Part shown: piece after piece, positions 11,373 through 54,744 of the stretch
Position numbering within the stretch: position 1 is the first letter of the stretch
How the letters are laid out: each line of letters starts with the position of its first letter
Source of the DNA: an uncultured Thiotrichales bacterium
Lineage (GTDB): Bacteria; Pseudomonadota; Gammaproteobacteria; UWMA-0217
DNA length: 64,000 nucleotides
Direction: 5' to 3'
NCBI GenBank assembly: GCA_964430355.1
Contig: CAYSFW010000047.1
Coordinates: forward strand, 5,090 to 69,089
Notes under the pieces: generated by a model
The model's database searches: none
Seen by the model: only the letters and a program-made list of their open reading frames with translations
What the model was told of the DNA's origin: nothing
Made by a program: the position numbers and the translations under genes

Positions 11373-11385
11373 GTTCGCCTGCGAC

Positions 11386-26800: not shown

Positions 26801-29089
26801 GTGATGAATCCTCGTTTCTGGACGGCGTTGACGCTGTTCGCCTCGTTGCCCGCGTTGACTGCCGCCGCAGATCGCGAGTTCATCGTGCGGGACATTCAGG
26901 TAATCGGCCTGGAGCGAATCTCCACAGGTGCAGTTTTCTCCAATATACCCGTGGACGTCGGTGGGCGCTTTGATCCGCGTCGCACTGATGAGGTCGTGCG
27001 GGCGCTCTACCGCAGTGGGTTGTTTGAAGACGTGGCCGTGGGCGTCGATCGCGATGTGCTCGTGATTCGGGTCAAGGAGCGCCCGGCGATCGCCGACATC
27101 ACCTTCGAGGGTAACGAGGACATCGAGACCGAAAAGCTGCAGGATGCGCTCAAGGCCGCCGGCATTGCCAAGGGGCGGGTCTTCAATCGATCCGTCCTCG
27201 AGGACCTGGAGCGTGAGCTGCGGCAGCAGTATTTCGCGCGTGGCAAATACAACGTCAAGATCGACACGACGGTCGAGCCGCTGGAAAACAACCGGGTCGA
27301 TATCGACATCAAGATTGCTGAAGGCGTGGTGTCGAAAATCAAGCAGGTCAACGTCGTCGGTAATCAGTCCTTCACGGATGAGCAGGTCACCAAGGACTTT
27401 CAGTCCGGCGTGCCGAGCTGGTGGGCGTTCTGGAGCAGCGCCGACGACTATTCCAAGCAAAAGCTCGTCGGTGATCTGGAAACCCTGCGTTCGTTTTACC
27501 TCGACAAGGGTTATCTGAACTTCAACATCGATTCGACGCAGGTCACGATCACACCGGACAAGCGCGATATCTACATCGACATCAATCTGACCGAGGGCAA
27601 GAAATACACCGTCAGCAACGTCAAGCTGAGCGGGGATTTGATCGTGCCCGAGGATCAGCTCAAGCCGCTGGTCAAGGTTGCGGCGGGCGACACGTTTTCG
27701 CGCGCGCGTGTCGTGGAGACGGTCAATGCCATCCGGGACCGGCTGGGCGAGGACGGCTACGCCTTCGCGAAGGTCGACGTCGTGCCGGAAGTCAACGAGG
27801 AAAAGAGCGCGGTGGCCCTGAATCTGGTGCTCGATCCCGGGCGCAGGGTCTATGTGCGGCGGATCAATTTCTCCGGCAACGCCAAGACGATCGATGAGGT
27901 GTTCCGGCGCGAAATGCGTCAGCTCGAAGGGGCGTGGTATTCAACTAAGGATGTCAACCGTTCCAAAACCCGTATCCAGCGTTTGCCGTTCGTGGAGAAC
28001 GTGACCCTCGAGCAAAAGCGCGTGCCGGGCCAGGAAGACCAGGTCGATCTCGACATCACGGTGACCGAGCGGTTTTCCGGTTCCTTTTCGGTGGGTGCGG
28101 GGTACTCGCAGAACCAGGGCTTCCTATTCAACATGTCGCTTCACCAGGACAACGCCTTCGGCAGCGGCAAGCGGCTCGCGCTCGACTTCAACAACAGCCA
28201 GGTGACGCGCATCTACAGCGTTACCTACACCAACCCGTACTACACGGTGGATGGCATCAGCCGCGGCTTCAACGCCTTCTATCGCACCACCGATGCCGCT
28301 GAGGCGAACATCTCCGCGTACATCGCCGATCGGTGGGGGCTCTCCGTGCGCTACGGCATCCCGCTGACCGAGTTCGATGCGTTCAACTTCAGCCTCGGCT
28401 ACGAAAACACCGAGATCAAGACGACCTCGCGCACACCGCGGGAGATCCACGATTTCCTCGATGCGAACGGCAACCGATATGGCGAATATGTGCTCAACGC
28501 GAGTCTCGTCCACGACACGCGTGACCGCACCGTATTCGCCAATCAGGGTAACCTGCAGCGTCTGCAGCTTGAGTCGTCTCTGCCAGGTAGCGACCTCGAC
28601 TACTACAAGCTGAGCTACCGCAACCAGTTCCTGGTGCCCATCACCAAGCGCTTCGTGTTCTCGGTGATGGGTGATGTGGCTTACGGTGACAGCTACGGCG
28701 ACACGAGCGACCTGCCGTTTTTCGAGAAGTACTACGCCGGCGGCATCAACTCCGTGCGCGGCTACCGCTCTAATAGCCTCGGTCCACGCAGCTCCACCGA
28801 TGATCCATTCGGCGGTAACTTCCGCACGCTGGCCAACATGGAGCTGCTGTTCCCCGCGCCATTCGCCCCCGACAACCCATCCGTGCGTATGGGCGCGTTC
28901 GTCGACGCCGGTAACGTATACCGGGTCTCCGACGACTTCGAATCGCGCGACCTGCGGACTTCCGCAGGCCTCTCGTTCGAGTGGCTATCGCCGATCGGTC
29001 CGCTGGTATTCAGTTACGCCGTACCCCTCAATGACAAGCCGGGCGATGAAAAACAGGAATTCCAGTTCAGCATCGGCGCGCAGTTTTGA
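26801..29089 (+). CDS. bamA: outer membrane protein assembly factor BamA
   Basis: 762 aa with POTRA repeats plus a C-terminal beta-barrel ending in F. Confidence 0.95.
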   Translation: MMNPRFWTALTLFASLPALTAAADREFIVRDIQVIGLERISTGAVFSNIPVDVGGRFDPRRTDEVVRALYRSGLFEDVAVGVDRDVLVIRVKERPAIADITFEGNEDIETEKLQDALKAAGIAKGRVFNRSVLEDLERELRQQYFARGKYNVKIDTTVEPLENNRVDIDIKIAEGVVSKIKQVNVVGNQSFTDEQVTKDFQSGVPSWWAFWSSADDYSKQKLVGDLETLRSFYLDKGYLNFNIDSTQVTITPDKRDIYIDINLTEGKKYTVSNVKLSGDLIVPEDQLKPLVKVAAGDTFSRARVVETVNAIRDRLGEDGYAFAKVDVVPEVNEEKSAVALNLVLDPGRRVYVRRINFSGNAKTIDEVFRREMRQLEGAWYSTKDVNRSKTRIQRLPFVENVTLEQKRVPGQEDQVDLDITVTERFSGSFSVGAGYSQNQGFLFNMSLHQDNAFGSGKRLALDFNNSQVTRIYSVTYTNPYYTVDGISRGFNAFYRTTDAAEANISAYIADRWGLSVRYGIPLTEFDAFNFSLGYENTEIKTTSRTPREIHDFLDANGNRYGEYVLNASLVHDTRDRTVFANQGNLQRLQLESSLPGSDLDYYKLSYRNQFLVPITKRFVFSVMGDVAYGDSYGDTSDLPFFEKYYAGGINSVRGYRSNSLGPRSSTDDPFGGNFRTLANMELLFPAPFAPDNPSVRMGAFVDAGNVYRVSDDFESRDLRTSAGLSFEWLSPIGPLVFSYAVPLNDKPGDEKQEFQFSIGAQF

Positions 29090-29109
29090 TCGACCTTCCA
29101 CCACGATAG

Positions 29110-29643
29110 ATGAGTAACGCCTCCTTGAATAAAAGACTCTTTGCCCTTTGCCTTTCTTTGGTTGCTTTCGTGTTTGCACCGGCCGCTGCGATGGCTGATT
29201 CGCGCATCGCCGCGGTCAATATCAACAAGCTCATGGAGGAGGCCCCGCAAGCGAAGTCCGCGAGCGAGGCCATCAAGAACAAGTTTGCCGGCCGCGAGCG
29301 CGAGCTGATCGCCGAGCGTGATGCGATCCGCAAGCTAGAGGAGCAGTACAACCGCGACAAGGACGTGGTTTCCAAGTCCGAGCGCGAGAAGCTCGAGCAG
29401 GACGTGCGCGAAAAGCTCCGCGAGTTCAAGCGCAAGTCCGACAGCTTCACTGAGGATTTCACGCTGGCCCGTAACGAGGCGCTGAACAAGCTGCAATCCG
29501 ATGTCTACAAGGCCATCGTGGATGTTGCCGAAAAGGAAAATTTCGACCTCGTGGTGAGCGAGAGCGTGCTCTACGCGAGCAAGCGCGTGGATGTCACCGA
29601 CAAGGTGCTGGCCCGTCTCAAGGAACAGTACGGTAGCAAGTAG
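29110..29643 (+). CDS. skp: periplasmic chaperone Skp (OmpH)
   Basis: Signal peptide plus Lys/Glu-rich coiled coil, between bamA and lpxD. Confidence 0.85.
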   Translation: MSNASLNKRLFALCLSLVAFVFAPAAAMADSRIAAVNINKLMEEAPQAKSASEAIKNKFAGRERELIAERDAIRKLEEQYNRDKDVVSKSEREKLEQDVREKLREFKRKSDSFTEDFTLARNEALNKLQSDVYKAIVDVAEKENFDLVVSESVLYASKRVDVTDKVLARLKEQYGSK

Positions 29644-29648
29644 TCCCC

Positions 29649-30665
29649 ATGCCGATGCGTGCTGCGGAGCTGGCTAGGGCACTGGGCCTCGCCGTGCAGG
29701 GTGACGGGGATGTGATCGTCGAGCGCGTCGCAAACCTCGCCCGCGCGGGTGAAGGCGACCTCGCTTTCGTCAGCAATCCGCAGTACCTGCCTCAGCTCGC
29801 GACCACGCGCGCATCGGCGGTCATTCTCAGCGCGCGCCACGCCGACCAGTGCCCGGTGACCGCGCTGCTGGCGGATGACCCGTATGTCGCCTACGCGCGC
29901 GCGGCTCAATTGCTCCATCCGCCTGCCAAGCCTGCGCCTGGCGTGCATCCGAGCGCGGTGGTCGGCCCGGACTGCGAGATCCCGGTGAGTGTCGCCATTG
30001 GACCCTGCGCCGTGCTCGGTCAGCGCGTGCGGCTGGGCGAGGGGGTCGTCATCGGCGCACACTGCGTGATCGAGGATGATGTCAGCATCGGCGCCGACAC
30101 CTGCCTCAAGCCGCGGGTGACCCTCTACGGGGGGGTTACGATCGGCGCGCGTTGCCTGATCCACTCGGGTGCGGTCATCGGTGCCGACGGCTTCGGCTTT
30201 GCCAACGAGCGGGGCGTCTGGGTCAAAATCCCCCAGGTGGGCAGCGTGCGTATCGGCGACGATGTGGAGATCGGGGCCAACACGACCATCGATCGCGGCG
30301 CGATCGACGACACGGTAATCGAGGACGGCGTCAAGCTCGACAACATGATCCAGATCGCACACAACGTGCGCGTCGGTGCCCACACGGCGATGGCCGGCTG
30401 TACCGGGGTGGCCGGCAGTGCGGTCATAGGCCGACATTGCGCCATCGGGGGTGGCGTGGGCATCACGGGTCACATCGAAGTGGCCGATCATGCGATAATT
30501 ACCGGGATGTCGTTCGTTTCCCAGTCGATCAAGCAGCCCGGCAGCTATTCATCGGGGCTGCCGTTGCTGGAGACCTCGCAGTGGCGTCGCAGCTTCATCC
30601 GCATCCGCCAGCTCGACGAACTCGCCAGGCAGGTCAGGAAAATCGAAAAGAAACTTCAGGATTGA
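29649..30665 (+). CDS. lpxD: UDP-3-O-(3-hydroxyacyl)glucosamine N-acyltransferase
   Basis: Left-handed beta-helix hexapeptide repeats at canonical position. Confidence 0.95.
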
Positions 30666-30673
30666 GCCATCCC

Positions 30674-31156
30674 ATGACCGATGAAGTCTCGCAGATCAAC
30701 GTCATTACGCCGATGGACATTCAGGAGGTGTTGAGCCTTCTGCCACACCGTTACCCCCTGTTGCTGATTGACCGGGTCGTGGAGTTCAAGCCGGGCGAAT
30801 CGCTCACGGCACTGAAGAACGTGACGTTCAACGAGCCCTTTTTTCAAGGCCATTTTCCGGGTCACCCCATCATGCCCGGCGTACTGATCATGGAGGCGCT
30901 GGCGCAGGCCTCAGGACTCTACGAGTTCGCCAGCCGCAAGGCACTCAACCAGCCGCGGGATTTCCTCTATCTGTTCGTGGCCATCGATAATGCGCGTTTC
31001 CGCCGTCCCGTGGTGCCGGGAGATCAGCTCGTCCTGCGCATCGAGCCGATCTCCAAGAAGCGCAACATGCTCAAAGTCAACGCCGTGGCCACCGTGGACG
31101 GTAAGGTCGTCGCCACCGCCGAGCTGATGTGCGCGCAGCAGGAGATTGCCCATTGA
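30674..31156 (+). CDS. fabZ: 3-hydroxyacyl-ACP dehydratase FabZ
   Basis: [35 protein letters not shown]... [12 protein letters not shown]. The listed 334-aa ORF is an upstream read-through artefact. Confidence 0.95.
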
Positions 31157-31920
31157 TCGACCCGCGGGCCATTGTCGATCCTCGCGCCGAAATCGCGGAT
31201 GACGTCGAGATCGGGCCGTACTCGATCATCGGGCCCGACGTTAAAGTGGAGTCGGGCACTTGGATCGGGCCGCACGTGGTCATCAAGGGGCCGACGCGCA
31301 TCGGTCGCGACAATAAGATCTTCCAGTTTGCTTCGCTCGGCGAGGCCCCGCAGGACCTTAAGTACAACGGCGAACCCACAGAGCTGATCCTCGGTGAGCG
31401 CAACACGGTGCGCGAGTACTGCACCTTCAACCGGGGCACCGTTGGCGGTCATGGCAAGACGGTCATCGGCAGTGACAACCTGTTCATGGCTTACGTGCAC
31501 GTCGCGCACGACTGCGTGATCGGCAACCGGGTCGTGTTCGCCAACGCCGCCTCGCTCGCAGGCCACGTCACCATCGGTGATCAGGTGATCCTGGGCGGCT
31601 TCACCCTCGTGCACCAGTTCAGCACCATCGGCGCGCACGCCTTCACCGGCATGGGTACCGCACTGAACCGCGACCTGCCGCCTTACTGCATGGCCTCGGG
31701 CAACTACGCCCGGGCGGTTGGCATCAACAAAGAGGGGCTCAAGCGTCGAGGCTTCAGCCCGGAGTGCATTCGCGCGCTGGGCCAGGCATTCAAGCTGCTC
31801 ATCCGCGGCGCGGACCGCGAAAAGGCGTTTGAGGACGTGAAGCCCCTGGCCGAGACGTTTCCCGAAGTTCAACTGTTCGCCGACTTCGTGCGCGACAGCA
31901 AACGCGGCGTGGTGCGCTGA
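31153..31920 (+). CDS. lpxA: acyl-ACP--UDP-N-acetylglucosamine O-acyltransferase
   Basis: Hexapeptide-repeat protein. Probable TTG start at 31153 overlaps the fabZ stop. Confidence 0.9.
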
Positions 31921-31967
31921 GGGCTACTCGTCGGTCTCATCCTCGTGAGCCCGTTCCGTCGCCGACC

Positions 31968-32342
31968 TTGCGCTATGTCAATGCGGTCGGGGCTGTGTTG
32001 CGGACACTATATCGCGCTCCCGTCACCCGTGTCTCATCCCTGAGCGTGCGTAGATCGAGCGGTTTTCTCCTTGCCGGCGGCGTGGCCCTGGCACTGATTG
32101 CAATGACCACCCTGGACGCGGCGCGGCAGCGGGCGGGCGCGCAGGCGCGGCTGGCCGAGGGGGCCAGGCTGGTGTCCGCGCTAGGGCTGACTGATCTCGC
32201 CCTGTTCACGGAGGCCCGCTACACGCGGCACTGGACTCAGGCGGATCTGCACAGCGCGTTTCAGGACCACCCCAGTGCACTCGAACATTTCCCGAGTGGC
32301 TCCCTGGTCGCGCCGTCGTGGGGGCGGGAGGCGGGGCTATGA
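31968..32342 (+). CDS. small membrane-anchored hypothetical protein, first gene of the NosL/ABC operon
   Basis: One TM segment (FLLAGGVALALIAMTTL). Its stop overlaps the permease start by 4 bp. Confidence 0.35.
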   Translation: MRYVNAVGAVLRTLYRAPVTRVSSLSVRRSSGFLLAGGVALALIAMTTLDAARQRAGAQARLAEGARLVSALGLTDLALFTEARYTRHWTQADLHSAFQDHPSALEHFPSGSLVAPSWGREAGL

Positions 32343-33472
32343 GCAGGGGATGGTGCCGACAGGCGTATCTCATCGATTTCACGCTCGCTTCGCTCTCGCG
32401 GCGACCCGGCAAGAACGCCGGGTTGGTCGTGGTCTACACGCTGATCGTGTTCCTGCTGGCGTCGGTGATGCTGTTTTCCCACGCGCTTCGGCGCGAGGCG
32501 GCACTGCTGCTGGCGGACTCGCCGCAGTTGATCGTGCAGCGCGTCGTGGCCGGCCGGCATGATTTCATCCCGGCGGAGTACCTGGAGCGCATCGGCGAAC
32601 TGCGCGGGGTTGCGTCGCGCCGGGGGCGACTGTGGGGCTATTTCTACGACCCGGCGGTGCGCGCCAACTACACGCTGATGGCAACCGAGGCGCACGGCCT
32701 CGTCCCGTCCGAGATCCTCATCGGCGCGACGATCGCTCGCACACGGGGGCTTGCCGCGGGGGATTTCCTCACGCTGCGCGACGCTGAGGGTCAACCCTTC
32801 GCGCTGCGCGTGCGCGGGGTGCTCGATGCGGACACTGAATTGCTCTCGGCTGATCTGGTCCTGCTCACGGAAGCGGACTGGCGGCGTTTTTTCGGCGTCG
32901 CGCAGGGTGTGTTCACGGATCTCGTGCTCGAGGTGCGCAACGCGGCGGAGGTGCGCAAGGTCGCGGAGAAAGTCACGCTGCTGCTGCCGGACACGCGGCC
33001 GATACTGCGCGAGGAGGTGCTGCGCACCTACGATGCGATCTTCGGCTGGCGGCAGGGCGTGGTGTTCGTGCTGCTGTTGGGGGCGGTGCTGGCCTTCGTG
33101 ATCTTCGCCTGGGACAAGGCCTCTGGCCTGTCCGCCGAGGAGCGGCGCGAAATCGGCATCCTCAAGGCGATCGGCTGGGAGACCTCGGACGTCATCCACA
33201 TGAAGTTCTGGGAGGGGGCGATCATCTCGCTCACGGCCTTCGCTCTCGGGTACCTCGGCGCGTACGTGCACGTGTTCTATGGTTCGGCGGCGCTGTTCGA
33301 GCCGGTACTCAAGGGTTGGGCGGTGCTCTACCCGGCGTTCCGACCGCTGCCCGAGATCGACGGCCTGCAGGTGGCAACGCTGTTCTTCTTCACTGTGTTT
33401 CCGTACACGGTGGCCACGATCGTGCCGATCTGGCAGGTGGCGGTCACCGATCCCGATGCCGTCATGCGATGA
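32339..33472 (+). CDS. ABC transporter permease, FtsX/MacB-type (4 TM with roughly 200-aa periplasmic domain)
   Basis: TM1, a long soluble domain, then three C-terminal TM helices with the FtsX signature region. It is translationally coupled to the ATPase. Confidence 0.75.
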   Translation: MSRGWCRQAYLIDFTLASLSRRPGKNAGLVVVYTLIVFLLASVMLFSHALRREAALLLADSPQLIVQRVVAGRHDFIPAEYLERIGELRGVASRRGRLWGYFYDPAVRANYTLMATEAHGLVPSEILIGATIARTRGLAAGDFLTLRDAEGQPFALRVRGVLDADTELLSADLVLLTEADWRRFFGVAQGVFTDLVLEVRNAAEVRKVAEKVTLLLPDTRPILREEVLRTYDAIFGWRQGVVFVLLLGAVLAFVIFAWDKASGLSAEERREIGILKAIGWETSDVIHMKFWEGAIISLTAFALGYLGAYVHVFYGSAALFEPVLKGWAVLYPAFRPLPEIDGLQVATLFFFTVFPYTVATIVPIWQVAVTDPDAVMR

Positions 33473-34143
33473 TCGAGCTCTCCGCCGTCAACAAGGTGTT
33501 CAACCAGGGGCGGCCCAATGAGTTTCGGGCCATCCGGGACGTGTCGCTGCGGCTCGACGGGGAGCGCGTGGTCGTGTTCAAGGGCCCGAGCGGCTCGGGC
33601 AAGACCACGCTGCTGTCGTTGATCGGCTGTCTGGCGCGACCGACTTCGGGACGCATCACGCTAGACGGCGAGCCCCTGTCCGGGCTGCCCGAGCGGTTCA
33701 TGACCGAGGTGCGCCGGCGCACCTTTGGCTTTGTGTTCCAGCAGTTCAACCTGATCCGGGGCCTGTCGGTGCTGGAGAACGTCATGCTGCCAGCCTATCC
33801 GCTGGGGCGTGATCATGGGGCGCTGAAGGCCGCGGCGCACGAGCGGCTGCGTCAGTTCGACCTCGACCACAAAGCCGCGGCGCGCGTCGAATGGCTATCC
33901 GGCGGTGAGGCGCAGCGTGTGGCGATCTGCCGCGCGCTGATCAACGAGCCGCGCATCCTGATCGCCGATGAGCCCACCGCCAACCTCGACAGCCGCTTGT
34001 CGCAGGCGTTCATGGATCACGTCGCCACGCTCGCCGCAGGCGGTGTCACCGTGCTGCTCAGCAGCCATGACCCCTTGGTGTTCGAATCCCCCGTGGTCGA
34101 GCGGGTCGTCGAGATGCGCGACGGGCAGGTGGTGTCCGCATGA
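33469..34143 (+). CDS. ABC transporter ATP-binding protein (LolD/MacB NBD-like)
   Basis: Walker A GPSGSGKTTLL, signature LSGGEAQRVAI and Walker B ILIADEPT. Confidence 0.9.
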   Translation: MIELSAVNKVFNQGRPNEFRAIRDVSLRLDGERVVVFKGPSGSGKTTLLSLIGCLARPTSGRITLDGEPLSGLPERFMTEVRRRTFGFVFQQFNLIRGLSVLENVMLPAYPLGRDHGALKAAAHERLRQFDLDHKAAARVEWLSGGEAQRVAICRALINEPRILIADEPTANLDSRLSQAFMDHVATLAAGGVTVLLSSHDPLVFESPVVERVVEMRDGQVVSA

Positions 34144-35144
34144 TCAGTCCGTCGGTGATGGCGCTGCAAGGCGCTTCGTTCACGCTGGCGGCATTGATGG
34201 TCGGCGCCGCGGCATTCGGTGTGCGCATCCTGCGGCATTGGGACATCACGAGTGGCAGCGAGCGGCAACTGCGGCTCGAACGTCAGACCTACCTGATCTC
34301 GACCGTCGTGGCCTACAGCTTCATGGCGGAGATCCTCGCGCTGCTCCTGTTCGTCTACACGGCCGAGCAGCTCTCGAGCCAGTTCGTCGGCGCGATGTGC
34401 GCCACCGGGGTCCTGAACGTCAATGGCTTCGGCTGGCCGACCTTGTGGGCAAAGATGGCCGTGGGATTCGCCGGTTTCGCGTGGCTCACCCTCGATGCGC
34501 TGGACCAGCGCGCGCCGGACTACCCACTCGTGAGGCGGAAGTACGCGCTGCTGATTGCGATCGCCCCGCTGGTCGTGCTGGAGGCCGGGTCGCAGGCAGC
34601 GTTCTTCGCCGGACTCAAGCCCGATGTCATCACCTCCTGCTGTGGCGCGTTGTTCACCCCGGAGGGACGAGGCGTGGCCGCGGAAGTCGCTGCAGTACCG
34701 CCCCGTTACGCAGCGATCCTATTCTATGCGAGCGGTGCCGCGCTCGCCGCGACGGGGGGTTACTTTCTGTGGCGGGCGAGGGGCGCGCGGCTGTTTGCGC
34801 TGGTGGGGGTGTCGACGTTCCTGATCGCGGTCGTGGCCATCGTCTCGTTCATCGCGCTGTACGTCTATGAGCACCCGCACCATCACTGCCCGTTCTGCTT
34901 GCTCAAGGCTGGCCACGGGTACGTGGGCTACGCGCTCTACCTGCCGCTGTTTACGGCCACGGCGTTTGCGCTAGGCACGGGGCTGGTCGCACCCTGGCGA
35001 CGCATCCCGACACTCGCCGAGGCGGCCCCGCGGCTGGCGCGGCACTACGCGTGGCTGGCATTAGCTGCCTTTACCGTGTTCTTCGCGGTGGCCACACTCG
35101 CCGTGCTGCGGTCGAACCTGACGATGGAGGGCGTTTGGTGGTAA
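34140..35144 (+). CDS. polytopic inner-membrane protein with conserved Cys/His motifs (AMCATG, TSCCG, HPHHHCPFCLLKAGHGY); family unknown
   Basis: About 8 predicted TM helices. Coupled by ATGA to the ATPase upstream and by TAATG to the thioredoxin gene downstream. Confidence 0.5.
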   Translation: MISPSVMALQGASFTLAALMVGAAAFGVRILRHWDITSGSERQLRLERQTYLISTVVAYSFMAEILALLLFVYTAEQLSSQFVGAMCATGVLNVNGFGWPTLWAKMAVGFAGFAWLTLDALDQRAPDYPLVRRKYALLIAIAPLVVLEAGSQAAFFAGLKPDVITSCCGALFTPEGRGVAAEVAAVPPRYAAILFYASGAALAATGGYFLWRARGARLFALVGVSTFLIAVVAIVSFIALYVYEHPHHHCPFCLLKAGHGYVGYALYLPLFTATAFALGTGLVAPWRRIPTLAEAAPRLARHYAWLALAAFTVFFAVATLAVLRSNLTMEGVWW

Positions 35145-35764
35145 TGCGGAGTCCACTGCGCGGCAAGGCGCGGGCAATGAAGGCATCACAGGGCGGTGAC
35201 TGCGCCGGTCGGTTTCGGGTGCCTGTGTTTCAAATTCTCGCGCACCAGGCGCTTGGCAGTCGATCGCCGTTGCGTGCTTGGAAGCTGACCTCAGCGCTGC
35301 TCCTCGTGGCGCTTGTCACCGCGTGCTCGGGCAAGCCCCCGGCGCTGGCCCCGGGCGAGCCGGTGCCCGGCTTCGCGTTGATGTCGCTCTCCGGCGAAAC
35401 CCTGCGTTTGCCGGAGGATGTGTCAGGCCGGGTGGTCGCCGTGCGCTTCTGGGCCGACTGGTGTCCGTTCTGCAAGTCGGAGATGCAGGCACTGGAGCCG
35501 GTTTACCAGCGCCTGAAGGAGGAGGGGCTCGTGATCCTGGCCATCAACGTCCGCCAGGACCGTGAGACCGCCGCGGCGTTCATCGCGAGGCTCGGTACGA
35601 GCTACCCGGTGTTGCTGGATACGGAGGGCGAAGTTGCGCGCCAGTATGGCGTCCTCGGCTTGCCGACGACCTTCATCGTGGACCAGCAGGGACGGCTGTC
35701 GTCGCGCATCATCGGCGAGTCCACGCCCGAGGTGTTCGAGCGCGCGGTGCGCGGGGCGCTGTGA
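35144..35764 (+). CDS. TlpA/ResA-family thiol-disulfide oxidoreductase lipoprotein (WCPFC)
   Basis: Thioredoxin fold with WADWCPFCKSEM. In frame, a TTG at 35270 would give the ideal lipoprotein signal MRAWKLTSALLLVALVTAC, so the true start may be 35270. Confidence 0.8.
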   Translation: MRSPLRGKARAMKASQGGDCAGRFRVPVFQILAHQALGSRSPLRAWKLTSALLLVALVTACSGKPPALAPGEPVPGFALMSLSGETLRLPEDVSGRVVAVRFWADWCPFCKSEMQALEPVYQRLKEEGLVILAINVRQDRETAAAFIARLGTSYPVLLDTEGEVARQYGVLGLPTTFIVDQQGRLSSRIIGESTPEVFERAVRGAL

Positions 35765-36441
35765 GCGACGAGTTCGGCTACGCGCTCGCGTTTCTCACTG
35801 GCCTGGCCGGGGCGCTGCACTGCCTGGGGATGTGCAGCGGGCTCGCGGCCGGGTTCGGCGCGCTCTGCGGTGTGCGGCCGTCCCTCGCGGTGCCGGCGCT
35901 CTATCACGCCGTGCGCCTCGGGGTCTACACGGTACTCGGCGCGGTCGGTGCGGCGCTCGGCAGCGCCCTGGTGCAGACCGGCCTGTTCGGCAAAGGGCAG
36001 GGGGTGTTGATGATCCTGGCCGGCATCGCCGTGATCTCGATTGGCGTTCATTTGGGGCTTGGGGGAGGGGCCGCGCAACCTGCCTGCAACGTGTCGGTCA
36101 AGCCCTTGCGCCGTCATGTCGGAGTTCCCCGTCACCGACTCGTCGCCTCCGCCCTCGGCGGCCTGATCAACGGCCTGGTGCCGTGCAGCCTGGTGTTTTC
36201 CGTCGCGCTCAAGGCCACGGCGACGGCAGATCCTGCGCGGGGTGCGCTGCTGATGGTGATCTTCGGGCTCGGCACGCTGCCGGCCATGTTTGCCGTCTCG
36301 GCGCTCGCCTCGCTGCTCGGCACACGGCTGCGGGGATGCTGGCCGCGCCGTCTGCTCGGGCTCACGGTCGTGATTCTCGGTGTGTGGACGCTGTACGAGG
36401 GCTGGGTGTTTTTTGACGTGATGCGCGGGCTGGCGGGCTAA
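35761..36441 (+). CDS. DsbD_2-type (CcdA-like) transmembrane thiol-disulfide transfer protein
   Basis: HCLGMC in TM1 and GLVPC in a later TM. Six TM helices. GTGA overlap with the thioredoxin stop. Confidence 0.6.
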   Translation: MSDEFGYALAFLTGLAGALHCLGMCSGLAAGFGALCGVRPSLAVPALYHAVRLGVYTVLGAVGAALGSALVQTGLFGKGQGVLMILAGIAVISIGVHLGLGGGAAQPACNVSVKPLRRHVGVPRHRLVASALGGLINGLVPCSLVFSVALKATATADPARGALLMVIFGLGTLPAMFAVSALASLLGTRLRGCWPRRLLGLTVVILGVWTLYEGWVFFDVMRGLAG

Positions 36442-36553
36442 TGGGGTGCGGCAATCTGTCGCATGTTTGTCTCGGGTCGCTGGGCGTATCCTAGTTCAAA
36501 GTCGCCTTGCGGCTTTCATAATCCAAGTTAAATCAAAGCCATGGAGACACCAC

Positions 36554-37180
36554 ATGAGCGATGTCGACACCCGCCGCCGTAAAGTCGTCAAGGTCCTCGC
36601 ATCCCTTGGCGCGGTCAGCGCAGTTGGTTTGCGGCCGGTTGCTGCCGCGCCGACAGCAGCGCGTTGCGACACCGACGGTACGCCGCTGCAGTTCGTCCCC
36701 AAGACGACTGCCGATGCCTCACCGCTCGAAAACGAGCTGCAAAAGTACCCGAAGTGCCCTTACTGCGGCATGGACCGCAAGCAGTGGAACCATAGCCGCC
36801 ACCTCGTGCAGTATGAGGACGATCTGGTCGACGGCACTTGCTCGATCCACTGTCTGGCGTTGAGCCTGGCGCTGAACATCGACCGCGGTCCGAAAGCGAT
36901 CTACGCAGCCGATTTCGGCTCGAGCGACGAGGTCAAGCCGCTGGTGCCGGTGGATGCCGCGACCTACCTGATCGGCTCGAAGCTCAAGGGTACGATGACG
37001 GCCGTGAGCAAGATGGCGTTCTCCTCTGCTGACGCAGCGAAAAAGTCGCAGGCCGAACACGGCGGTGAACTGGGCGACTTCGACAAGGCCCTGCGTGCCG
37101 CCTACACCAGCATGGCCGACGACACGTTGCGTATCCGCAAGATGCGTGCCGAGCGGCGCGCCAAAGCGATGCAGCAGTGA
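36554..37180 (+). CDS. NosL-family copper chaperone paralog with Tat-type signal
   Basis: TRRRKVVKVLASLGAVSAV twin-arginine signal. A CPYCGM metal motif, and the ATYLIGSKLKGTMTAV ... GGELGDFD segment aligns with the NosL core. GGAGA Shine-Dalgarno 6 nt upstream. Confidence 0.65.
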   Translation: MSDVDTRRRKVVKVLASLGAVSAVGLRPVAAAPTAARCDTDGTPLQFVPKTTADASPLENELQKYPKCPYCGMDRKQWNHSRHLVQYEDDLVDGTCSIHCLALSLALNIDRGPKAIYAADFGSSDEVKPLVPVDAATYLIGSKLKGTMTAVSKMAFSSADAAKKSQAEHGGELGDFDKALRAAYTSMADDTLRIRKMRAERRAKAMQQ

Positions 37181-37698
37181 TCGGCGCGGGTGTCTGGACG
37201 CGACGCCTGGGGCTTGCAGCGGTGTGGCTCTGTCTGGTTGCCGCGCCGTTGCGCTCTCACGCTGAGTCGCTGCAACTGCCCGCACCGGGGCCAAAGGACA
37301 CCTGCCCGGTGTGCGGCATGTTCGTATCCAAGTACCCGCAGTGGATCGCGACCGTGCTGTATCGAGACGGGCATGCGCACCACTTCGACGGGGCCAAGGA
37401 CCTGTTCAAGTATCTGCAGGACCTCGCAAAATGGGCCCCGGGCCGCCGCCGTGAGGACATTCAGGCGATCGGGGTCACCGAGTACTACGGCTTGAGTCGC
37501 ATCCGCGCCCAAGACGCCTGGTTTGTCATCGGTTCCGACGTGCTGGGGCCGATGGGGCACGAACTCGTGCCGCTCGCGTCCCAGGCCGAGGCCGAGGAGT
37601 TCGTGCGCGACCATCAAGGCAAGCGCATCCTGCGCTTCGACGCCGTGACCCCCGAACTCATCAAGCGTCTGGACGAAGGACGTTTCGACGGCATCTAG
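37177..37698 (+). CDS. nosL: NosL-family copper chaperone (Sec signal)
   Basis: CPVCGM motif, with AWFVIGSDVLGPMGHELV and RILRFDAV matching NosL. GTG start overlapping the upstream stop. Confidence 0.7.
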   Translation: MIGAGVWTRRLGLAAVWLCLVAAPLRSHAESLQLPAPGPKDTCPVCGMFVSKYPQWIATVLYRDGHAHHFDGAKDLFKYLQDLAKWAPGRRREDIQAIGVTEYYGLSRIRAQDAWFVIGSDVLGPMGHELVPLASQAEAEEFVRDHQGKRILRFDAVTPELIKRLDEGRFDGI

Positions 37699-37949
37699 CC
37701 GCGCCTGGCGCATCGCTCGGCGCCGGGTTTGCCCATGGGTTGAGCATCATCGTTGCCGGTCGGCTGGAGCTGCCCTACCATTCTGGGCCGCGCAGAGGTC
37801 GCAGCGCGGGTATCGCTGCGGTCTGCGGTTTCTCCAAGTAGGACCACTGCCGTGGTAGGTACACTATTCCAATACCGTTCGATCCTCGACCACGGGCGTC
37901 GCCGTGACGATGCCGGTCGTTGATTCAACCCATAGCCCAGGAGCCCTCG

Positions 37950-38336
37950 ATGTATACATTCGAAGTCACGCTCAGCATGCCGTTTGACGACGCCGTCGCC
38001 CGCGTCACGGCGGCACTCATGGAACACAAGATGGGTGTTGTGAGCGACATACCGGTGTCGGACATCGTGAAGAACAAACTCGGTACCGCGATCCGCCCCT
38101 ACCGCATCCTCGGCGCCTGTCAGCCTGCGCTCGCCCTGAGGGTGATCGAATCGGACCCCAACGGCGGCACGCTCCTGCCTTGTAACGTCGCGCTGCAGGA
38201 GGTGGCCGATGATCAGGTCGTCGTGCGTTTCATGGACCCCATCTCCGTGCTGCGTCTCTCCGACGCCGCAGAGGTCGCCGACGTCGGCCGTGAGGCCGCT
38301 GCCCTGTTGCGGCGGGTTGCCGACAGCCTCGCCTGA
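37950..38336 (+). CDS. DUF302 domain protein
   Basis: The YRILGACQP motif and a length of about 128 aa are typical of DUF302. Confidence 0.75.
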   Translation: MYTFEVTLSMPFDDAVARVTAALMEHKMGVVSDIPVSDIVKNKLGTAIRPYRILGACQPALALRVIESDPNGGTLLPCNVALQEVADDQVVVRFMDPISVLRLSDAAEVADVGREAAALLRRVADSLA

Positions 38337-38445
38337 CGGTTCGGGCCTGACGGCGCTTTTCTGAGGCGAGGGGTACGCCGCCCGCCGCAAGTGATGCGAG
38401 CGCCGGATCGGGTGAGGCAGCCGGGGCCGCTCACTCAAGGAAACA

Positions 38446-38550
38446 CCGATTGAATCCCCTCGCCCTCAGGGAGAGGGGCAGGGGTGAGGGAGACGTTACG
38501 GCGATTCAGCAGGTGACCCTCTCCCCCGCAAGCGGGGGAGAGGGAATGAA
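38446..38550. repeat. pair of REP-like GC-rich hairpin elements (for example CCCTCTCCCCC-gcaagc-GGGGGAGAGGG at 38517-38544) between convergent genes
   Basis: Two related units of about 50 bp, each beginning CGATTSA and each holding a strong palindrome. Confidence 0.5.
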
Positions 38551-38627
38551 GATATCAGTGTCTCCTTAGGCAATCGACGGCGTAGGCGGGCCCTAGTGAC
38601 GCGGCGCTCAATCGAGCCGCGTTGGCT

Positions 38628-39116
38628 TCAGGCCGACTGGGATGCCTCGCTGGCGATCGCGCCGTGCAGCCGGCGCTCTAGCTCACCGTGGTCCAGGATG
38701 AAGCATTTGACGCCCGCCGCGAGCACGTACTGGGCGATCAGGTCGCAAGACTTATACGGCGCCTGAGGTCGGATGTCTGACTCACCTAGGCGCACGGGGT
38801 GCGGTATGCCCTGAATCTCTATCGCGAAGCTGTCCAGGCCGCGCAGGTTGAGCAGGCCGTTGAGCACGGCAACGCGCCGGGTGCGTACCTGGGTCTGCTC
38901 TGGCAGCAGATCACAGAAACGCTCCAGTGACACCAGTGGTACCTCGCGATCGCGCCACACCAGCAGCCCCCGAATCCAGTCCGGTACGCTTTGCAGGGGG
39001 CGCACTTCCGGCATCGACACGACCTCGACCAAAGCGCTCTGCGGCACCAGTAGATTTTGCAGCCGCATCGGAACGATCAGCGATTGAATCTTTACTTTAG
39101 CGTGCTGCGTTTCCAT
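38628..39116 (-). CDS. chpC: CheW-like coupling protein (ChpC-like)
   Basis: Single CheW domain. Its start overlaps the chpA stop by 20 bp. Confidence 0.8.
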   Translation of the reverse strand: METQHAKVKIQSLIVPMRLQNLLVPQSALVEVVSMPEVRPLQSVPDWIRGLLVWRDREVPLVSLERFCDLLPEQTQVRTRRVAVLNGLLNLRGLDSFAIEIQGIPHPVRLGESDIRPQAPYKSCDLIAQYVLAAGVKCFILDHGELERRLHGAIASEASQSA

Positions 39117-42100
39117 GTGCCTGCTGTCCGACTTCCTTGAAAACGGCCTGGATGTTTTCGATCAACACCTGATCCTGGTACGGCTTGCCGAGGAACCGAT
39201 TCACACCGAGCTCGAGCGCCCGATCACGGTGCTTTTTGCCCGTGCGCGAGGTAATCATGATGATCGGCAACTCACGGTTGGTGTCCATGCTGCGAATGTG
39301 CGCAGCAAGCTCGTAGCCGTCCATGCGCGGCATCTCGATATCGAGCAGCATCATATCGGGCCGCACTTCCTGCAACTGCGCGATGGCGTCCATGCCGTCC
39401 TTTGCGGTGATCACGTTGAAATTGTGCCGCTCGAGCATGCGTGCCGTGACCTTGCGGATGGTGATCGAGTCGTCGACCACCATGATCGTTGGGCGTTCTG
39501 TCCCAACCGAGGATTCCTTGCGCACCGGTGCCGGCGCCCAGGACGCCTCGCCAGCGACTGAACGCAGCAGGCCCAGCATGTCGAGGATGAGCACAACGCG
39601 CCCATCGCCGAGGATGGTCGCGCCGGAGATCCCCTTGACCGACTGGAACAGGGCGCCGATTGACTTCACGACAATCTCGCGGTTGCCGATCAATTGATCG
39701 ACGACGAATCCCACCGCCCTGTCGTGAGTGCGTGCGAGCAGCACGGGCATGGTGCGTTCGAAGTGAGGCACCGGGTGATGCGCGTCGCGCTCCAGCACCG
39801 CTGAAAGCAGCTTGAGCTGGTAGCTGGCGCCTGCATACTCGATGCCGGGATCGCGGTGCGCGAATTTGTCATTCAGGACCTTGGCCGGGATCTGCACCAC
39901 GCTGTCGATGGCGGTCAGGGGTACCGCGAAGAGCTCGGTGCCGACTGTGATCAGCAGGGCCTGGTTGATCGCGAGCGTGAACGGCAAGTGGATCCGGAAG
40001 CGGGTGCCCTGACCGGGTGTCGACTGGATATCGAGCACACCGTTAAGGCGCCGCACCTGCTCCTGAACCACGTCCATACCGACGCCGCGACCCGAGAGCT
40101 GGCTCACGCGTTCCGCTGTGCTAAAGCCAGGTTGGAGGATCAGTTCCATGACCTCGGCGTCGGTCAACTCACGCGAACCGTCGATCAGGCAGACCGCCAT
40201 CGCCTTGCGCCGGACGGCATCGAGGTTGATTCCAGCACCGTCATCCGAGACCGCGATGACGACCTCCGGGCCTTCGCGCGCAATCCTCACCTGGATGCGG
40301 CCGATGCGTGGCTTGCCCGCCTGCGTCCGGTGTTCCGGCAGCTCGATGCCGTGCGCGACCGCATTGCGCAGCATGTGCTCGAGCGGCACCATGATGCCCT
40401 CCAGCATCTTGCGGTCGAGCGGCTGCTGTTCGCCGCTGACGTGGAGCTCCACCTCCTTGCCCAGCTCCAAGGCAGCGCGTCGGACCACCCGCCGCAGCCG
40501 CGGGACCATGACCCTGAACTCCGACATGCGGGTCTGCAGGAGGCTCTCCTGAAGATCTCCGCTGACGCGGCTCTGCTGGCGAAGCAGGGATTCGAGCGCG
40601 CGAATCTGTTCCGAGAGGATCTGGTGGAGATTGACCAGGTCGTTGGAACTCTCCGCCAGACCGCGGGCGAGCTGTTGCATGGTCGAATAGCGGTCCAGCT
40701 CCAGCGGATCGAACTTGTCGTAGACCGAGCTTTCGTCCGGGTCGATCTTTGCATCGTAGCGATGCACGATCTGTGCTTCGGTCTCCACCTCGAGACGGCG
40801 CAACTGGGCCCCAAGCCGCTTGATGGTCTGGTCGAGTTCCTGCAGGTTGAACGCGAAACCGCCGACCTGCTGCTCCAGCCGCGACTGAAATACGTTCACT
40901 TCGCCGACGTTGTCGACCATCTTGTCGAGCAAGTCGGCGCGAATCTTGACGACATCCCGGGCCGCTGCGACCTCCGCAGCGACCGCTTCGCCCGGCGCGG
41001 TATCCGCTTCGTGCTCGGTTTCGGGGGATGGGGTTGTGGCCGGTTCGGTCGGTGCAGCAACCGTCATCGTCCTTACCGGATCGGCTGCTGCCACAGGGCT
41101 TTCCACCTGCGCCATGATGCCGGCGAGCGTCTTTGCGGAGATATTTTCGCCCCGTCGCACGCGGGCCAACTGTTCCATGAGCGGCTGGTTGTTGGCCACG
41201 GGCTTGTGGGCCTGGATGAGCGCGGCCATCTGGTTGATCTGGTCGAGACCGGTGTGGATCAGGTCGAACAGCTCGCGGTCAGGATTGAGTTGGCCCTCCA
41301 CGACGTCGAGGAGGACATTCTCCAGTGCGTGGCTGAGGTCCCCAAGCACCTGAATCCCCGCCATCCGGGCGCCGCCTTTGAGGGTGTGCAACTCACGGCG
41401 CAGTTCGGCCAGCGGCCCAGCATCACTCGGGTTCGACTGCCAGCGCGCCATGATGTTGTCGCAGCTGTCGAGGATCTCACGGCATTCCTCGAGGAACACC
41501 TCGACAAGCTCGGCCGATTGCTCACCCGCGCCGTCCTCCTGCCAGGTCTTGGCGGGCTCGCTCGACCCGCCTCGCGGCGTGAGCCCGGAGGACATAGCTT
41601 CGTCCGCGGCGGGTGACGCCTGCGGTGCATCGTTTGACCCAGGGGCGTCGATGGTGGCCGCCAGCGCGTCGTTTGCGACCTCGGGTGATTGAGCTGAGTC
41701 CTGTGCCTCCAGTTCGACCGCCGCCACGGGCACGTCCAGGCTGGGGCTCTGTGCGAGAGCCTCGGCGGCTTCGTGGGCACGCCACTGCAAGGTGGGGTCC
41801 TGGGGAACCGGTGTTGACGCCTGAAGCGCGGCGATCACGTGCTCCACGTAACCCGCAAAGTCCAGCAGCAACGTCACCTCGTCTGCGTCCAGCACCAGCG
41901 CGTGCCGGTATTTCAGCGTCAACAGGCGCTCGAGATCCTTCGCGGTCTCGTAGATCTCCGGCAACGCGGCGGTTCGGGCCGCGCCGTTGAGCGTGTGCGC
42001 AGCACGCAGCAGCGGTTCATCGACGAGCGCTGGCCCCATCTCGCAGCGGGCACACGCCTTGCGGATTTGCGAGATGTGCTCGAGCGCCTCAGCGGCAAAG

Positions 42101-45090: not shown

Positions 45091-45124
45091 TAAGCCTGCC
45101 TGACATCCCTGTCCGGACCGCCGG

Positions 45125-47242: not shown

Positions 47243-47290
47243 CTGTCAGATACCTGTGTGTTGGGCCCTTCATTGCGCAGGTGCACCGGC

Positions 47291-47842: not shown

Positions 47843-48210
47843 TTGCCGCCGCCCAACAGGTCACCGATGCAGCCGAGCAGCTGTCGCTCGCTCGGCGGTT
47901 TGACGAGGTAGGCGCGCGCGCCCTGACGCTTGGCCCAGAGCATGTCCGACTCGCCGTCCTTCGTGGTGACCATGACCACCGGGATGTTGCGAGTCGATTC
48001 GGTTCGGCTCAGCTCGCGGGTAGCCTGAAAGCCGTTCAGCTCGGGCATCACCACGTCCATGAGGATCAGGTCCGGGCTGATACGCTTGGCCAGCTGCAAG
48101 CCCTCCGAGCCGTTGTTGGCAACGGTCACGGTGTGGCCGTTTTTCTCCAGGATCTTGCGGAATGCGTGCCGGTCGGTCGCAGAGTCATCGACGACGAGGA
48201 TGTGCGCCAC
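47839..48210 (-). CDS. pilH: CheY-like response regulator PilH
   Basis: 123-aa REC domain beginning ILVVDDS. Confidence 0.85.
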   Translation of the reverse strand: MAHILVVDDSATDRHAFRKILEKNGHTVTVANNGSEGLQLAKRISPDLILMDVVMPELNGFQATRELSRTESTRNIPVVMVTTKDGESDMLWAKRQGARAYLVKPPSERQLLGCIGDLLGGGK

Positions 48211-48246
48211 GGGGAGTCTCCAGGTCCTTTTGCTGCCGATGATGCC

Positions 48247-54733: not shown

Positions 54734-54744
54734 CCGGGATTCGC

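Follow-up and report, generated by a model that had tools for sequence, protein, structure and literature searches.

Judged from its sequence, the four-gene core described here pairs an ABC engine of the MacB/LolE type with NosL chaperones by way of a new Cys-rich membrane protein, designated T8. The core lies within a window of 64,000 nucleotides (the whole stretch of DNA that was analysed, from an uncultured Thiotrichales bacterium), and the coordinates of its features are given in Table 1. T8 is tentatively read, with a likelihood a little short of even, as a membrane-embedded, periplasm-facing, thiolate-rich subunit for the binding or hand-over of Cu(I) in a relay formed by a type VII ABC transporter and NosL proteins. 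The analysis shows the gene and its family, the conserved residues and the side of the membrane on which they lie, the synteny, the fold class of the permease, the homology to NosL and the enrichment of an FNR-type box; which metal is carried and in which direction, that the proteins form a complex, and what the TlpA-like protein does are what we infer.

Table 1. Coordinates of the T8 gene, its motifs and the surrounding genes in the window
Feature	Position	Strand	Remarks
Candidate FNR/ANR/DNR-type box, TTGCGCTATGTCAA	31968..31981	.	Upstream of the operon
Small bitopic protein (98 aa)	32046..32342	+	GTG start at 32046; one N-terminal TM helix
FtsX/MacB/LolE-type (type VII) ABC permease (377 aa)	32339..33472	+	
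ABC ATPase, FtsE/LolD/MacB type (224 aa)	33469..34143	+	Pfam ABC_tran, 6.9e-31
T8 (334 aa; predicted 8 TM, N-terminus out)	34140..35144	+	ORF, homologues, hydropathy, model
GAMCATG motif (G84-A-M86-C87-A-x-G90)	34389..34409	+	T8 periplasmic loop TM2-TM3
TSCCG motif (S166-C167-C168)	34632..34646	+	T8 periplasmic loop TM4-TM5
YEHPHHHCPFC motif	34866..34898	+	Periplasmic end of T8 TM6
TlpA/ResA-type thioredoxin-fold lipoprotein, active site WCPFC	35270..35764	+	Pfam AhpC-TSA, 1.1e-26; Redoxin, 1.3e-23
DsbD_2 (PF13386) 6-TM protein, HCxxMC and PC motifs	35761..36441	+	Pfam, 1.9e-34
NosLa (Tat signal, periplasmic, NosL-related)	36554..37180	+	Pfam NosL, 1e-12
NosLb (Sec signal, soluble NosL homologue, CPVCGM)	37177..37698	+	Pfam NosL, 3e-30

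Family, topology and conserved residues of T8

The original prediction described a protein of 334 residues with about eight transmembrane helices and three Cys clusters. Its reading frame was confirmed, hydropathy and an AlphaFold2 model (pLDDT 85.8, pTM 0.85) agree on eight long helices, and the three motifs translate as described. A word-indexed search returned at least 1563 homologues and an exhaustive HMM search resolved the family into 1105 clusters at 50% identity, numbers that exclude a chance ORF as the origin of T8. The statement that T8 fits no described family was likewise borne out: sequence searches of Pfam, NCBIfam and PDB gave no match, and none of the Pfam families was matched consistently by 98 diverse relatives at E≤1. 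The best recurring Pfam match of these relatives, ADD_DNMT3 (9 of 98, E 0.022), was regarded as spurious. No clear match to the whole fold was evident in the PDB. The protein is labelled 'hypothetical' in nearly all naming sources, the exceptions being two evidently spurious JGI names, and no published account of the cluster was found in the literature on NosL with FtsX, MacB, TlpA, sulfur oxidisers and symbionts. On sequence grounds T8 founds a large family without prior annotation. Comparison by hhalign rejected both an internal duplication (TM1-4 against TM5-8, probability at most 3%) and kinship with the co-encoded DsbD_2 protein, FtsX permease or small protein (at most 0.9%).

Carriers of T8 are found among sulfur-oxidising Gammaproteobacteria, Desulfobulbales, Magnetococcus and Calditrichaceae, a list skewed by similarity to the query, related loci having been found with the closer alignment. 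Named carriers include Sedimenticola, Thiodiazotropha, tubeworm symbionts, Chromatiaceae, Thioalbus and Sulfurivermis; the module is also present in Competibacteraceae and Calditrichaceae, and it is conserved across at least four phyla. A tblastn search of 72,556 plasmids, which bears on the idea of a mobile metal resistance, gave no match to T8.

T8 has 15 Lys and Arg residues in its predicted cytoplasmic parts and 4 in the periplasmic ones, the family averaging 12.8 and 3.5, counted with the hydrophobic cores as helix limits, the AlphaFold2 helices extending past the membrane. All five Cys residues are predicted to be periplasmic, and no cytoplasmic Cys is conserved. Among 106 diverse members, C87 is kept in 99%, M86 in 96%, G84 and G90 in 99%, C167 in 98%, C168 in 99%, H248 in 91% and C250 in 95%. 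The conserved core thus consists of M86-C87, S166-C167-C168 and H248-x-C250-P-F, all in predicted periplasmic loops. These Cys-bearing loops are the least confident regions of the model, with a pLDDT of 52-63 in the TSCCG loop.

The His-rich Cys-Pro-x-Cys stretch, which had been called classic for Cu(I) or redox-active metal handling, is not as a whole the unit that conservation marks out. Whereas the Cys motifs themselves are conserved, most of the His run and C253 are not. The conserved part of YEHPHHHCPFC is Y243, P246, H248 and C250-P251-F252; H245, H247 and H259 recur in just 7-22% of the 106 members, and position 253 holds Cys (66%) or Asp (26%), the variant HH(R/H)CPFD occurring in Desulfobulbales and Calditrichaceae. 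Since C253 is often Asp and most of the His run is lost, the CxxC is not the defining feature of T8. Loci with Asp at 253 and a known gene context number only 3-4, not enough to correlate this position with DsbD_2 presence or the TlpA motif.

No Cys, Met or His is conserved within the membrane segments, a pattern that speaks against a pore and in favour of a site at the surface. The conserved intramembrane polar residues (E/Q64, K105 and E/D148) lie in mid-membrane or in its outer half, and D/E76 lies just past the periplasmic end of TM2. A transmembrane channel, as suggested originally, is therefore unlikely. On the cytoplasmic face W34, Q43, E47, D122, P129 and K134 are conserved.

The four-gene core, its neighbours and its probable regulation

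The gene order small protein-FtsX-ABC-T8 is kept across four phyla and in nearly all those of 88 loci, chosen via T8, whose flanking DNA is long enough; it recurs in Gammaproteobacteria, Desulfobulbales, Calditrichaceae and further lineages, in agreement with the proposal that T8 is a core component of the operon. The first three junctions of the core (small protein-FtsX, FtsX-ABC and ABC-T8) are ATGA overlaps, which suggests a complex of fixed stoichiometry. The small protein, encoded directly before the FtsX gene in 74 of the 88 loci, has no Pfam match; it carries the conserved motif TEARYTRH...D...FQDHP...HFP, and D49, T54, A56, R57, Y58, R60, H61, D73, P75, P82 and P89 are invariant across phyla. 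The permease has an FtsX C-terminal domain, four transmembrane helices and a large periplasmic domain between TM1 and TM2, with a MacB/LolE-like fold match. The ATPase matches FtsE (1.2e-51) and LolD (4.2e-50) of NCBIfam below the equivalog cut-offs. Together the two form a type VII ABC transporter (MacB/LolCDE/FtsEX). LolCDE proper was rejected on the NCBIfam scores, which are 27.4 bits against a cut-off of 362 for the permease (lolCE) and 170 against 308 for the ATPase (LolD).

Translational coupling of T8 had been proposed on both sides. It stands for the ABC ATPase upstream, whose stop codon overlaps the T8 start at 34140-34143, and is doubtful for the TlpA-like gene downstream. The T8 stop codon TAA (35142-35144) does overlap an ATG at 35144 that is in frame with the TlpA gene, but the conserved lipoprotein signal, LRAWKLTSALLLVALVTAC, starts at TTG 35270 and the homologues are 163-174 aa long, so that a gap of about 125 nt between the two genes is the likely arrangement. 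The lipobox is conserved in relatives. The TlpA-like lipoprotein, which matches ResA of NCBIfam (1.7e-29) below the cut-off, is encoded in 75 of the 88 loci. The DsbD_2 gene, which overlaps the TlpA gene by GTGA, is present in 51 of the 88 loci and absent from the Desulfobulbales clusters.

NosLa and NosLb are assigned to the NosL family by PF05573 scores of 48.9 and 105.7 bits, respectively (cut-off 24), and by the CxxCGM motif. NosLa has the pattern C-x2-C-G-M ... C-x3-C (TRASH/YHS-like); its RR signal and CPYCGM...CSIHC are conserved in 72 loci, and its match to NosL in the PDB is weak (0.05). NosLb is conserved in 73 loci, lacks a lipobox and matches the NosL structures 7og7 (1.2e-8) and 7osf (4.5e-6). 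Identity with the NosL of canonical nos clusters was rejected, as NosLa has a Tat signal, NosLb has a Sec signal without a lipobox, and nosZ, nosD, nosF and nosY are absent from the cluster in the window and from most of the 88 loci. NosL homologues with CxxCGM occur in every phylum sampled.

The contexts of the cluster vary, and no cuproenzyme gene, sulfur gene or nosZ was found as a recurrent neighbour in the 88 loci. All-against-all clustering of their ORFs returned only the cluster genes and antisense shadows, and two small groups of recurrent ORFs on the forward strand had no Pfam match. Individual lineages add further genes: locus L089 carries nosD-nosF-nosL-nosY, a fusion of NosL to cytochrome c and a fusion of NosL to an outer-membrane barrel, L091 a TonB-dependent receptor with NosL, L001 P1B-ATPase and HMA genes, and L092 a nearby molybdopterin oxidoreductase and a Sulf_transp gene.

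The candidate box upstream of the operon keeps TTG-N8-CAA and has three mismatches to TTGAT-N4-ATCAA, a degenerate site. Of 72 related loci, 21 have an FNR-type site with at most one mismatch at the equivalent position and 51 have one with at most two; in GC-matched background windows the frequencies are 1.0% and 9.3%. Most gammaproteobacterial relatives have such a box ahead of the operon, its enrichment at this fixed position being about 30-fold, and the operon is probably switched on at low oxygen via an FNR-type activator. A scan of positions 31800-38700 for sigma-70 promoters and terminators gave nothing useful for the operon boundaries.

Possible functions of T8

A link of T8 to the handling of a soft metal such as copper is plausible because NosL-type chaperones accompany T8 almost everywhere. 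NosL serves as a chaperone for Cu(I), and the cysteines with which CoxB binds Cu are reduced by TlpA (PMC7558416). The hand-over of Cu(I) is favoured by several lines of evidence. The conserved Met, four Cys and His of T8 form a classical soft-metal ligand set in the predicted periplasm, and a metal ligand at position 253 could alternate between Cys and Asp, as is observed, which the disulfide of a catalytic CxxC could not. T8 is encoded directly after the small protein-FtsX-ABC genes in nearly all loci, the permease is structurally MacB/LolE-like, NosL homologues accompany the core in 72-73 of the 88 loci, with NosLb matching solved NosL structures, and the independent lineages L089, L091 and L001 add copper-linked neighbours. 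The enriched FNR-type box is in keeping with a module that supplies low-oxygen cuproenzymes. Several observations weaken the case: no cuproenzyme gene is a conserved neighbour, the four-gene core occurs with neither NosL nor TlpA nearby in Competibacteraceae and in L090, the four invariant periplasmic Cys might just as well pair into two disulfides with a structural or redox role, the FNR-type site of the window itself has three mismatches, and the Cys-bearing loops are modelled with the least confidence.

In the proposed mechanism the small one-helix protein, the FtsX-type permease, the ATPase and T8 would make up a four-protein machine. NosLa and NosLb would bind periplasmic Cu(I), delivered in some lineages by outer-membrane uptake proteins, and would pass it to T8 by ligand exchange at a cluster of M86/C87, C167/C168 and H248/C250 (with C/D253), formed jointly by three periplasmic loops. 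The permease would relay cytoplasmic ATP binding and hydrolysis to this site, the cytoplasmic loops of T8 with their conserved residues possibly sharing in the relay of the signal. The ATP cycle would load or unload the site, and the metal would then be given to a cuproenzyme or a further carrier. Reduction of the cysteines would fall to the TlpA-like lipoprotein, which would draw on DsbD_2 in the loci that have it.

Four to five conserved periplasmic Cys on a helical-bundle scaffold are also a feature of DsbB and VKOR, and T8 may, as a live though unlikely alternative to copper hand-over, be a thiol-disulfide oxidoreductase resembling DsbB, VKOR or CcdA that exchanges electrons with TlpA through its periplasmic Cys, with quinone or a cytoplasmic donor as its partner, and sets the redox state of the NosL-type chaperones or their clients. 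The thioredoxin-fold lipoprotein gene adjoins T8 in those 75 loci, the tetrapeptide CPFC is common to T8 and gammaproteobacterial TlpA, and the Desulfobulbales clusters are without DsbD_2, so T8 could be the TlpA partner there. The known families are, like T8, polytopic helical proteins with Cys on the periplasmic face, essential in their case, and are encoded beside a thioredoxin-fold partner or work with one; they differ in having no sequence relationship to it, in their four to six helices against eight, and in that T8 is tied to an ABC transporter. Membership of DsbB/VKOR by sequence was rejected, the only CxxC being variable at C253 and Pfam giving no match, as was membership of DsbD/CcdA/DsbD_2 (hhalign probability of 0.3% against the co-encoded DsbD_2, eight helices, Cys in loops).

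The even number of invariant periplasmic Cys, four, would suit two disulfides or a structural Zn site, and the cytoplasmic-face residues of T8 resemble a protein-protein interface. In this view T8 would assist the FtsX-type ABC machine as an accessory subunit, either structural or regulatory, with its three periplasmic loops made rigid, and the substrate would be handled by the permease and the NosL proteins. Accessory membrane proteins are recruited by other type VII ABC systems as well. This role of T8 is given a low probability: Met86, His248, the Pro and Phe around C250 and Cys/Asp at 253 are conserved as a ligand-like set, a system whose Cys had to stay oxidised would not be expected to carry its own reductant branch (TlpA, alone or with DsbD_2), and some carriers are strict anaerobes (Desulfobulbales), among which disulfides are less usually formed in the periplasm. 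Still less is granted to a handling of reduced sulfur in place of free metal, the sulfur being borne by the Cys-Cys pair as persulfide or polysulfide, or present as a Cu-S species, in the service of copper-sulfide cluster assembly or inner-membrane sulfur trafficking in bacteria of the sulfide zone. A vicinal Cys pair can carry a persulfide, sulfur oxidisers, Desulfobulbales and Magnetococcus dominate the named carriers, in L089 the module neighbours nosDFY, whose products serve CuZ, a Cu-S centre, and L092 has its oxidoreductase and Sulf_transp genes. However, the taxon list is biased by query similarity and extends to Competibacteraceae and Calditrichaceae, sox, dsr, sqr and rhodanese genes do not recur next to the cluster, and the near-constant soluble partners are NosL-type metal chaperones and not sulfur carriers. 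It is scarcely credible that H-x-C-P serves as a Cys-Pro haem-binding motif in a haem-handling protein related to cytochrome c maturation, with an HrtBA-like FtsX transporter and a ResA/CcdA-like reductant pair as partners.

Relation to known systems and significance

A close parallel to the proposed copper hand-over by T8 is NosDFY-NosL, which inserts copper into nitrous oxide reductase in P. stutzeri (PDB 7osf and related entries) and in which a Cu(I) chaperone of the NosL family with CxxCGM is likewise paired with an ABC ATPase and permease. NosDFY uses cytoplasmic ATP hydrolysis for periplasmic work, as the T8 module would; both are linked to low-oxygen metabolism, and in L089 they lie side by side. 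The T8 module differs in its FtsX/MacB/LolE type VII permease, as against the ABC-2 type NosY, in the lack of a NosD beta-helix, in NosL proteins that are soluble (one with a Tat, one with a Sec signal) instead of lipoproteins, in T8 and the small protein, which have no counterpart in nos clusters, and in the lack of nosZ as a conserved neighbour. To our knowledge, no described type VII member (MacB, LolCDE, FtsEX, HrtBA, BceAB) has an operon-encoded, Cys-rich partner with eight helices or NosL-type chaperones. Neither a membrane-fusion protein nor a TolC partner was found with the module among the window ORFs by Pfam.

In the Mer system MerP is the periplasmic CxxC metal donor, and in MerT, MerC and MerF, as proposed for T8, clustered or vicinal Cys on the periplasmic side take a thiophilic metal from such a protein. 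Periplasmic-loop Cys of the copper importer CcoA are thought to assist copper transport (PMC7558416). T8 differs from Mer and CcoA in having no detected homology, no conserved cytoplasmic Cys pair and no intramembrane Met/His motifs; a relay through the membrane is thus not evident. Identity with MerT/MerC/MerF was rejected (no Pfam match, no conserved cytoplasmic Cys, five Cys periplasmic), and so, by HMM search, was the CopD/CtaG type (no match to PF05425 or PF09678 among 98 members at E≤1). The Scs system of copper tolerance (ScsABCD) likewise has a TlpA-like thioredoxin together with a membrane protein resembling DsbD, and its periplasmic function is related to copper; it is without an ABC transporter, NosL and a T8-like protein.

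N2O reduction and high-affinity respiration are limited by the supply of copper, a metal that becomes extremely scarce in the presence of sulfide. The module bears on copper acquisition and insertion in bacteria of the sulfide zone, including the symbionts of lucinid clams and tubeworms. A broader proposal, held to be somewhat unlikely, is that the four-gene core and the soluble NosL chaperones form a hitherto unrecognised ATP-driven engine of periplasmic copper acquisition and insertion, a functional analogue of NosDFY-NosL on a type VII ABC scaffold, in which T8 would be a Cu(I)-thiolate hand-over site of new fold, supplying cuproenzymes (cbb3 oxidase, N2O reductase) at the sulfide/oxygen interface, where sulfide leaves hardly any copper available. 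If the role proposed for the module holds, there would be a second ABC-driven route of copper insertion alongside NosDFY. Type VII ABC 'mechanotransmission' machines would then be known to do more than at present, and over 1000 protein clusters would gain a name and a function open to testing. Even with a different metal, the four-gene core would be a new ABC-associated complex worthy of structural study.

The T8 family and its topology

The fourth operon gene (see table) encodes T8, a membrane protein of 334 aa. T8 matched no Pfam or NCBIfam model and no PDB sequence, and no Pfam family matched 98 diverse members; it is outside every known family, in line with the original failure to place it. 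Neither the protein nor its cluster was described in the literature covered by full-text searches. At least 1563 homologues were retrieved by a word-indexed search, the best 120 showing 55-66% identity and a length of about 335 aa; nearly all homologues with a name are 'hypothetical', and the two JGI names that depart from this are evidently spurious. When 1.84 billion cluster representatives were searched exhaustively with a profile, 1105 clusters passed E<=1e-3, of which 338 also passed E<=1e-30. Carriers include sulfur-oxidising Gammaproteobacteria (Thioalbus, Sulfurivermis, Sedimenticola, Ca. Thiodiazotropha, tubeworm endosymbionts, Lamprocystis and other Chromatiaceae, Thiotrichales MAGs), Competibacteraceae, Desulfobulbales (e.g. 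Desulfofustis, Desulfocapsaceae, Desulforhopalus), Magnetococcus and Calditrichaceae; no homologue was found on any of the 72,556 plasmids searched.

The expected eight or so TM helices were recovered as eight hydrophobic cores in the hydropathy profile (7-29, 52-74, 99-119, 136-156, 190-210, 220-242, 263-284, 303-324) and as eight long helices, with short loop helices, in an AlphaFold2 model (24 homologues; pLDDT 85.8, pTM 0.85). Even-numbered loops contain 15 K+R and the remaining loops 4 (family means 12.8 and 3.5), so the N-terminus is predicted to be outside. The three Cys motifs were all located in the translation, and all five Cys (87, 167, 168, 250, 253) and the His run fall in predicted periplasmic loops.

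Close relatives keep every Cys and the whole HPHHH run without exception; the conserved set is smaller among 106 representatives with identity down to about 27%. It comprises W34, Q43, E47, D122, P129, L130 and K134 on the cytoplasmic side, G84-A-M86-C87-A-x-G90 and G98 in the first periplasmic loop, S166-C167-C168 and F172 in the second, and Y243, P246, H248, C250-P251-F252, G263 and Y267 in the third loop and the start of TM7. Of the His-rich Cys-Pro-x-Cys site emphasised originally, C250-P251-F252 and H248 are thus retained, but at position 253 66% of members have Cys and 26% have Asp, and H245, H247 and H259 are kept in just 7-22%. The site reads HH(R/H)CPFD in Desulfobulbales and Calditrichaceae. 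Judged by conservation, the family is thus defined by a Met, four Cys and a His on the outer side rather than by a His-rich CxxC. The bilayer segments hold no conserved Cys, Met or His among the 106 representatives; strongly polar residues are conserved there at three positions only, E/Q64, K105 and E/D148, in mid-membrane or the outer half, while D/E76 lies just past the periplasmic end of TM2. The lack of intramembrane Cys, Met and His argues for a putative periplasm-open binding pocket over a through-membrane metal path.

The operon and related loci

Features of the T8 operon in the window
Feature	Coordinates	Strand	Remark
Small 1-TM protein	32046-32342	+	first operon gene
FtsX-type permease	32339-33472	+	second operon gene
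ABC ATPase	33469-34143	+	third operon gene
T8	34140-35144	+	fourth operon gene
GAMCATG motif	34389-34409	+	within T8 ORF
TSCCG motif	34632-34646	+	within T8 ORF
YEHPHHHCPFC motif	34866-34898	+	within T8 ORF
TlpA/ResA-type lipoprotein	35270-35764	+	fifth operon gene
DsbD_2 protein	35761-36441	+	sixth operon gene
NosL-like protein, Tat signal (NosLa)	36554-37180	+	seventh operon gene
NosL, Sec signal (NosLb)	37177-37698	+	eighth operon gene

ATGA overlaps occur at the first three junctions, in agreement with the proposed coupling of T8 to the ABC ATPase. Coupling had also been proposed to the TlpA-like gene, and the last base of the T8 stop TAA is indeed the first of an in-frame ATG (35144); it is nevertheless doubtful, since the conserved lipoprotein signal starts at TTG 35270 and homologues measure 163-174 aa. 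The lipoprotein's active site is WCPFC in the gammaproteobacterial clade, the CPFC tetrapeptide being common to T8 (HCPFC); in Desulfobulbales TlpA C(R/K)YC is paired with T8 CPFD, Asp-type loci being too few for a test of co-variation. The first helix of the DsbD_2 protein contains HCxxMC, and a later helix contains PC. Its Pfam family, also called UreH-like, is suspected of metal permease activity; if that holds, the protein may be a metal carrier instead of an electron conduit.

Among 88 loci picked via T8, where most absences are contig ends, partners were ABC (85), FtsX (81), TlpA (75), small (74), NosL proteins (72-73) and DsbD_2 (51). The order small-FtsX-ABC-T8 is essentially invariant, and no other recurrent gene was found beside the cluster. 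Desulfobulbales have TlpA-NosL-small-FtsX-ABC-T8 without DsbD_2; Competibacteraceae and one further locus (L090) have the four-gene core only. Locus L089 (Logan SRR8439172 contig, 1-12075) is a copper-linked super-cluster, with nosD-nosF-nosL-nosY, TlpA, a NosL::cytochrome c fusion, NosL and a NosL::outer-membrane-barrel (Phenol_MetA_deg) fusion directly upstream of the core and an FGE-sulfatase-like gene downstream. Locus L091 (Calditrichaceae MAG, GCA_050173015.1, 1-11011) has, upstream of the core, NosL, a TonB-dependent receptor, the Fer4_5 membrane protein, an HGD-D/BcrAD_BadFG dehydratase-activator pair and another NosL. In Thioalbus a P1B-ATPase, HMA genes and two further DsbD_2 genes precede the cluster. 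In Sulfurivermis fontis (L003, AP018724) the otherwise conserved operon is interrupted between T8 and TlpA by a tandem pair of identical transposase-like genes of 412 aa, possibly ISL3-type (11062-13614, minus strand).

The rest of the window (1-31920 and 38628-58412) holds housekeeping genes and no cuproenzyme gene. It includes a LolC/E-like FtsX permease (14-1090), proS, an RND pump (7060-11372), pyrB/pyrC-like genes, three PilT/PilU-like ATPases, immediately 5' of the operon bamA-skp-lpxD-fabZ-lpxA (26801-31920), and cheW, a 1997-aa ChpA-like kinase and PilJ (38628-47242, minus strand). A DUF302 gene (37920-38336, +) 3' of the operon adjoins the cluster in 0/88 related loci. The 499-aa ORF at 12010-13509 (-), with a C-terminal AhpC/TSA-Redoxin domain (residues 342-463) and 340 N-terminal aa without assignment, may encode a second protein with a thioredoxin fold, unless the ORF is over-extended.

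Regulation

Many of the gammaproteobacterial relatives carry a TTGAT-N4-ATCAA box 5' of the small gene, at a distance of about 65-110 nt. With <=2 mismatches it was present in 51/72 loci versus 9.3% of GC-matched 160-nt background windows, and with <=1 mismatch in 21/72 versus 1.0%; many perfect boxes come from related Sedimenticola genomes, but loci of Thioalbus, Sulfurivermis, Lamprocystis and Thiotrichales also carry boxes with <=1 mismatch. The window's copy is degenerate (TTGCGCTATGTCAA, 31968-31981), and in its closest relatives the box at this place has 1-2 mismatches. Control by an FNR/ANR/DNR-type regulator, and with it low-oxygen expression, is probable. A sigma-70-like promoter match (36495-36522, +) lies just 5' of the probable NosLa start ATG 36554, and the NosL pair may have its own promoter in addition; in several relatives the pair is upstream of the core instead.

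Proposed role

N2O reductase has NosL as a Cu(I) chaperone, CoxB Cu-ligand cysteines are reduced by TlpA, copper is imported by TonB-dependent NosA/OprC, and cysteines in periplasmic loops of the Cu importer CcoA are believed to aid its function (PMC7558416). Tentatively, though ahead of any alternative, T8 may act in a type VII ABC machine as its metal-binding subunit, facing outward and rich in thiolates; NosL-type Cu(I) chaperones would serve the machine, and TlpA, plus DsbD_2 where present, would hold the thiols reduced. We infer which metal is bound, which way it is transferred and that a physical complex exists. With intramembrane ligands lacking, a surface hand-over site is likelier than the metal channel originally suggested.

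A DsbB/VKOR/CcdA-like redox relay between T8 and TlpA is unlikely, as the CxxC is not conserved and some T8 loci lack TlpA. A purely structural role of the Cys is rather improbable, handling of sulfur or Cu-S species slightly more so, and handling of haem very improbable.

The module is alike in logic to NosDFY-NosL but differs in its ABC class, its soluble chaperones and its two new membrane proteins. L089 and L091 encode outer-membrane uptake components, which, together with the probable low-oxygen regulation, favour a role in acquisition or insertion over detoxification.
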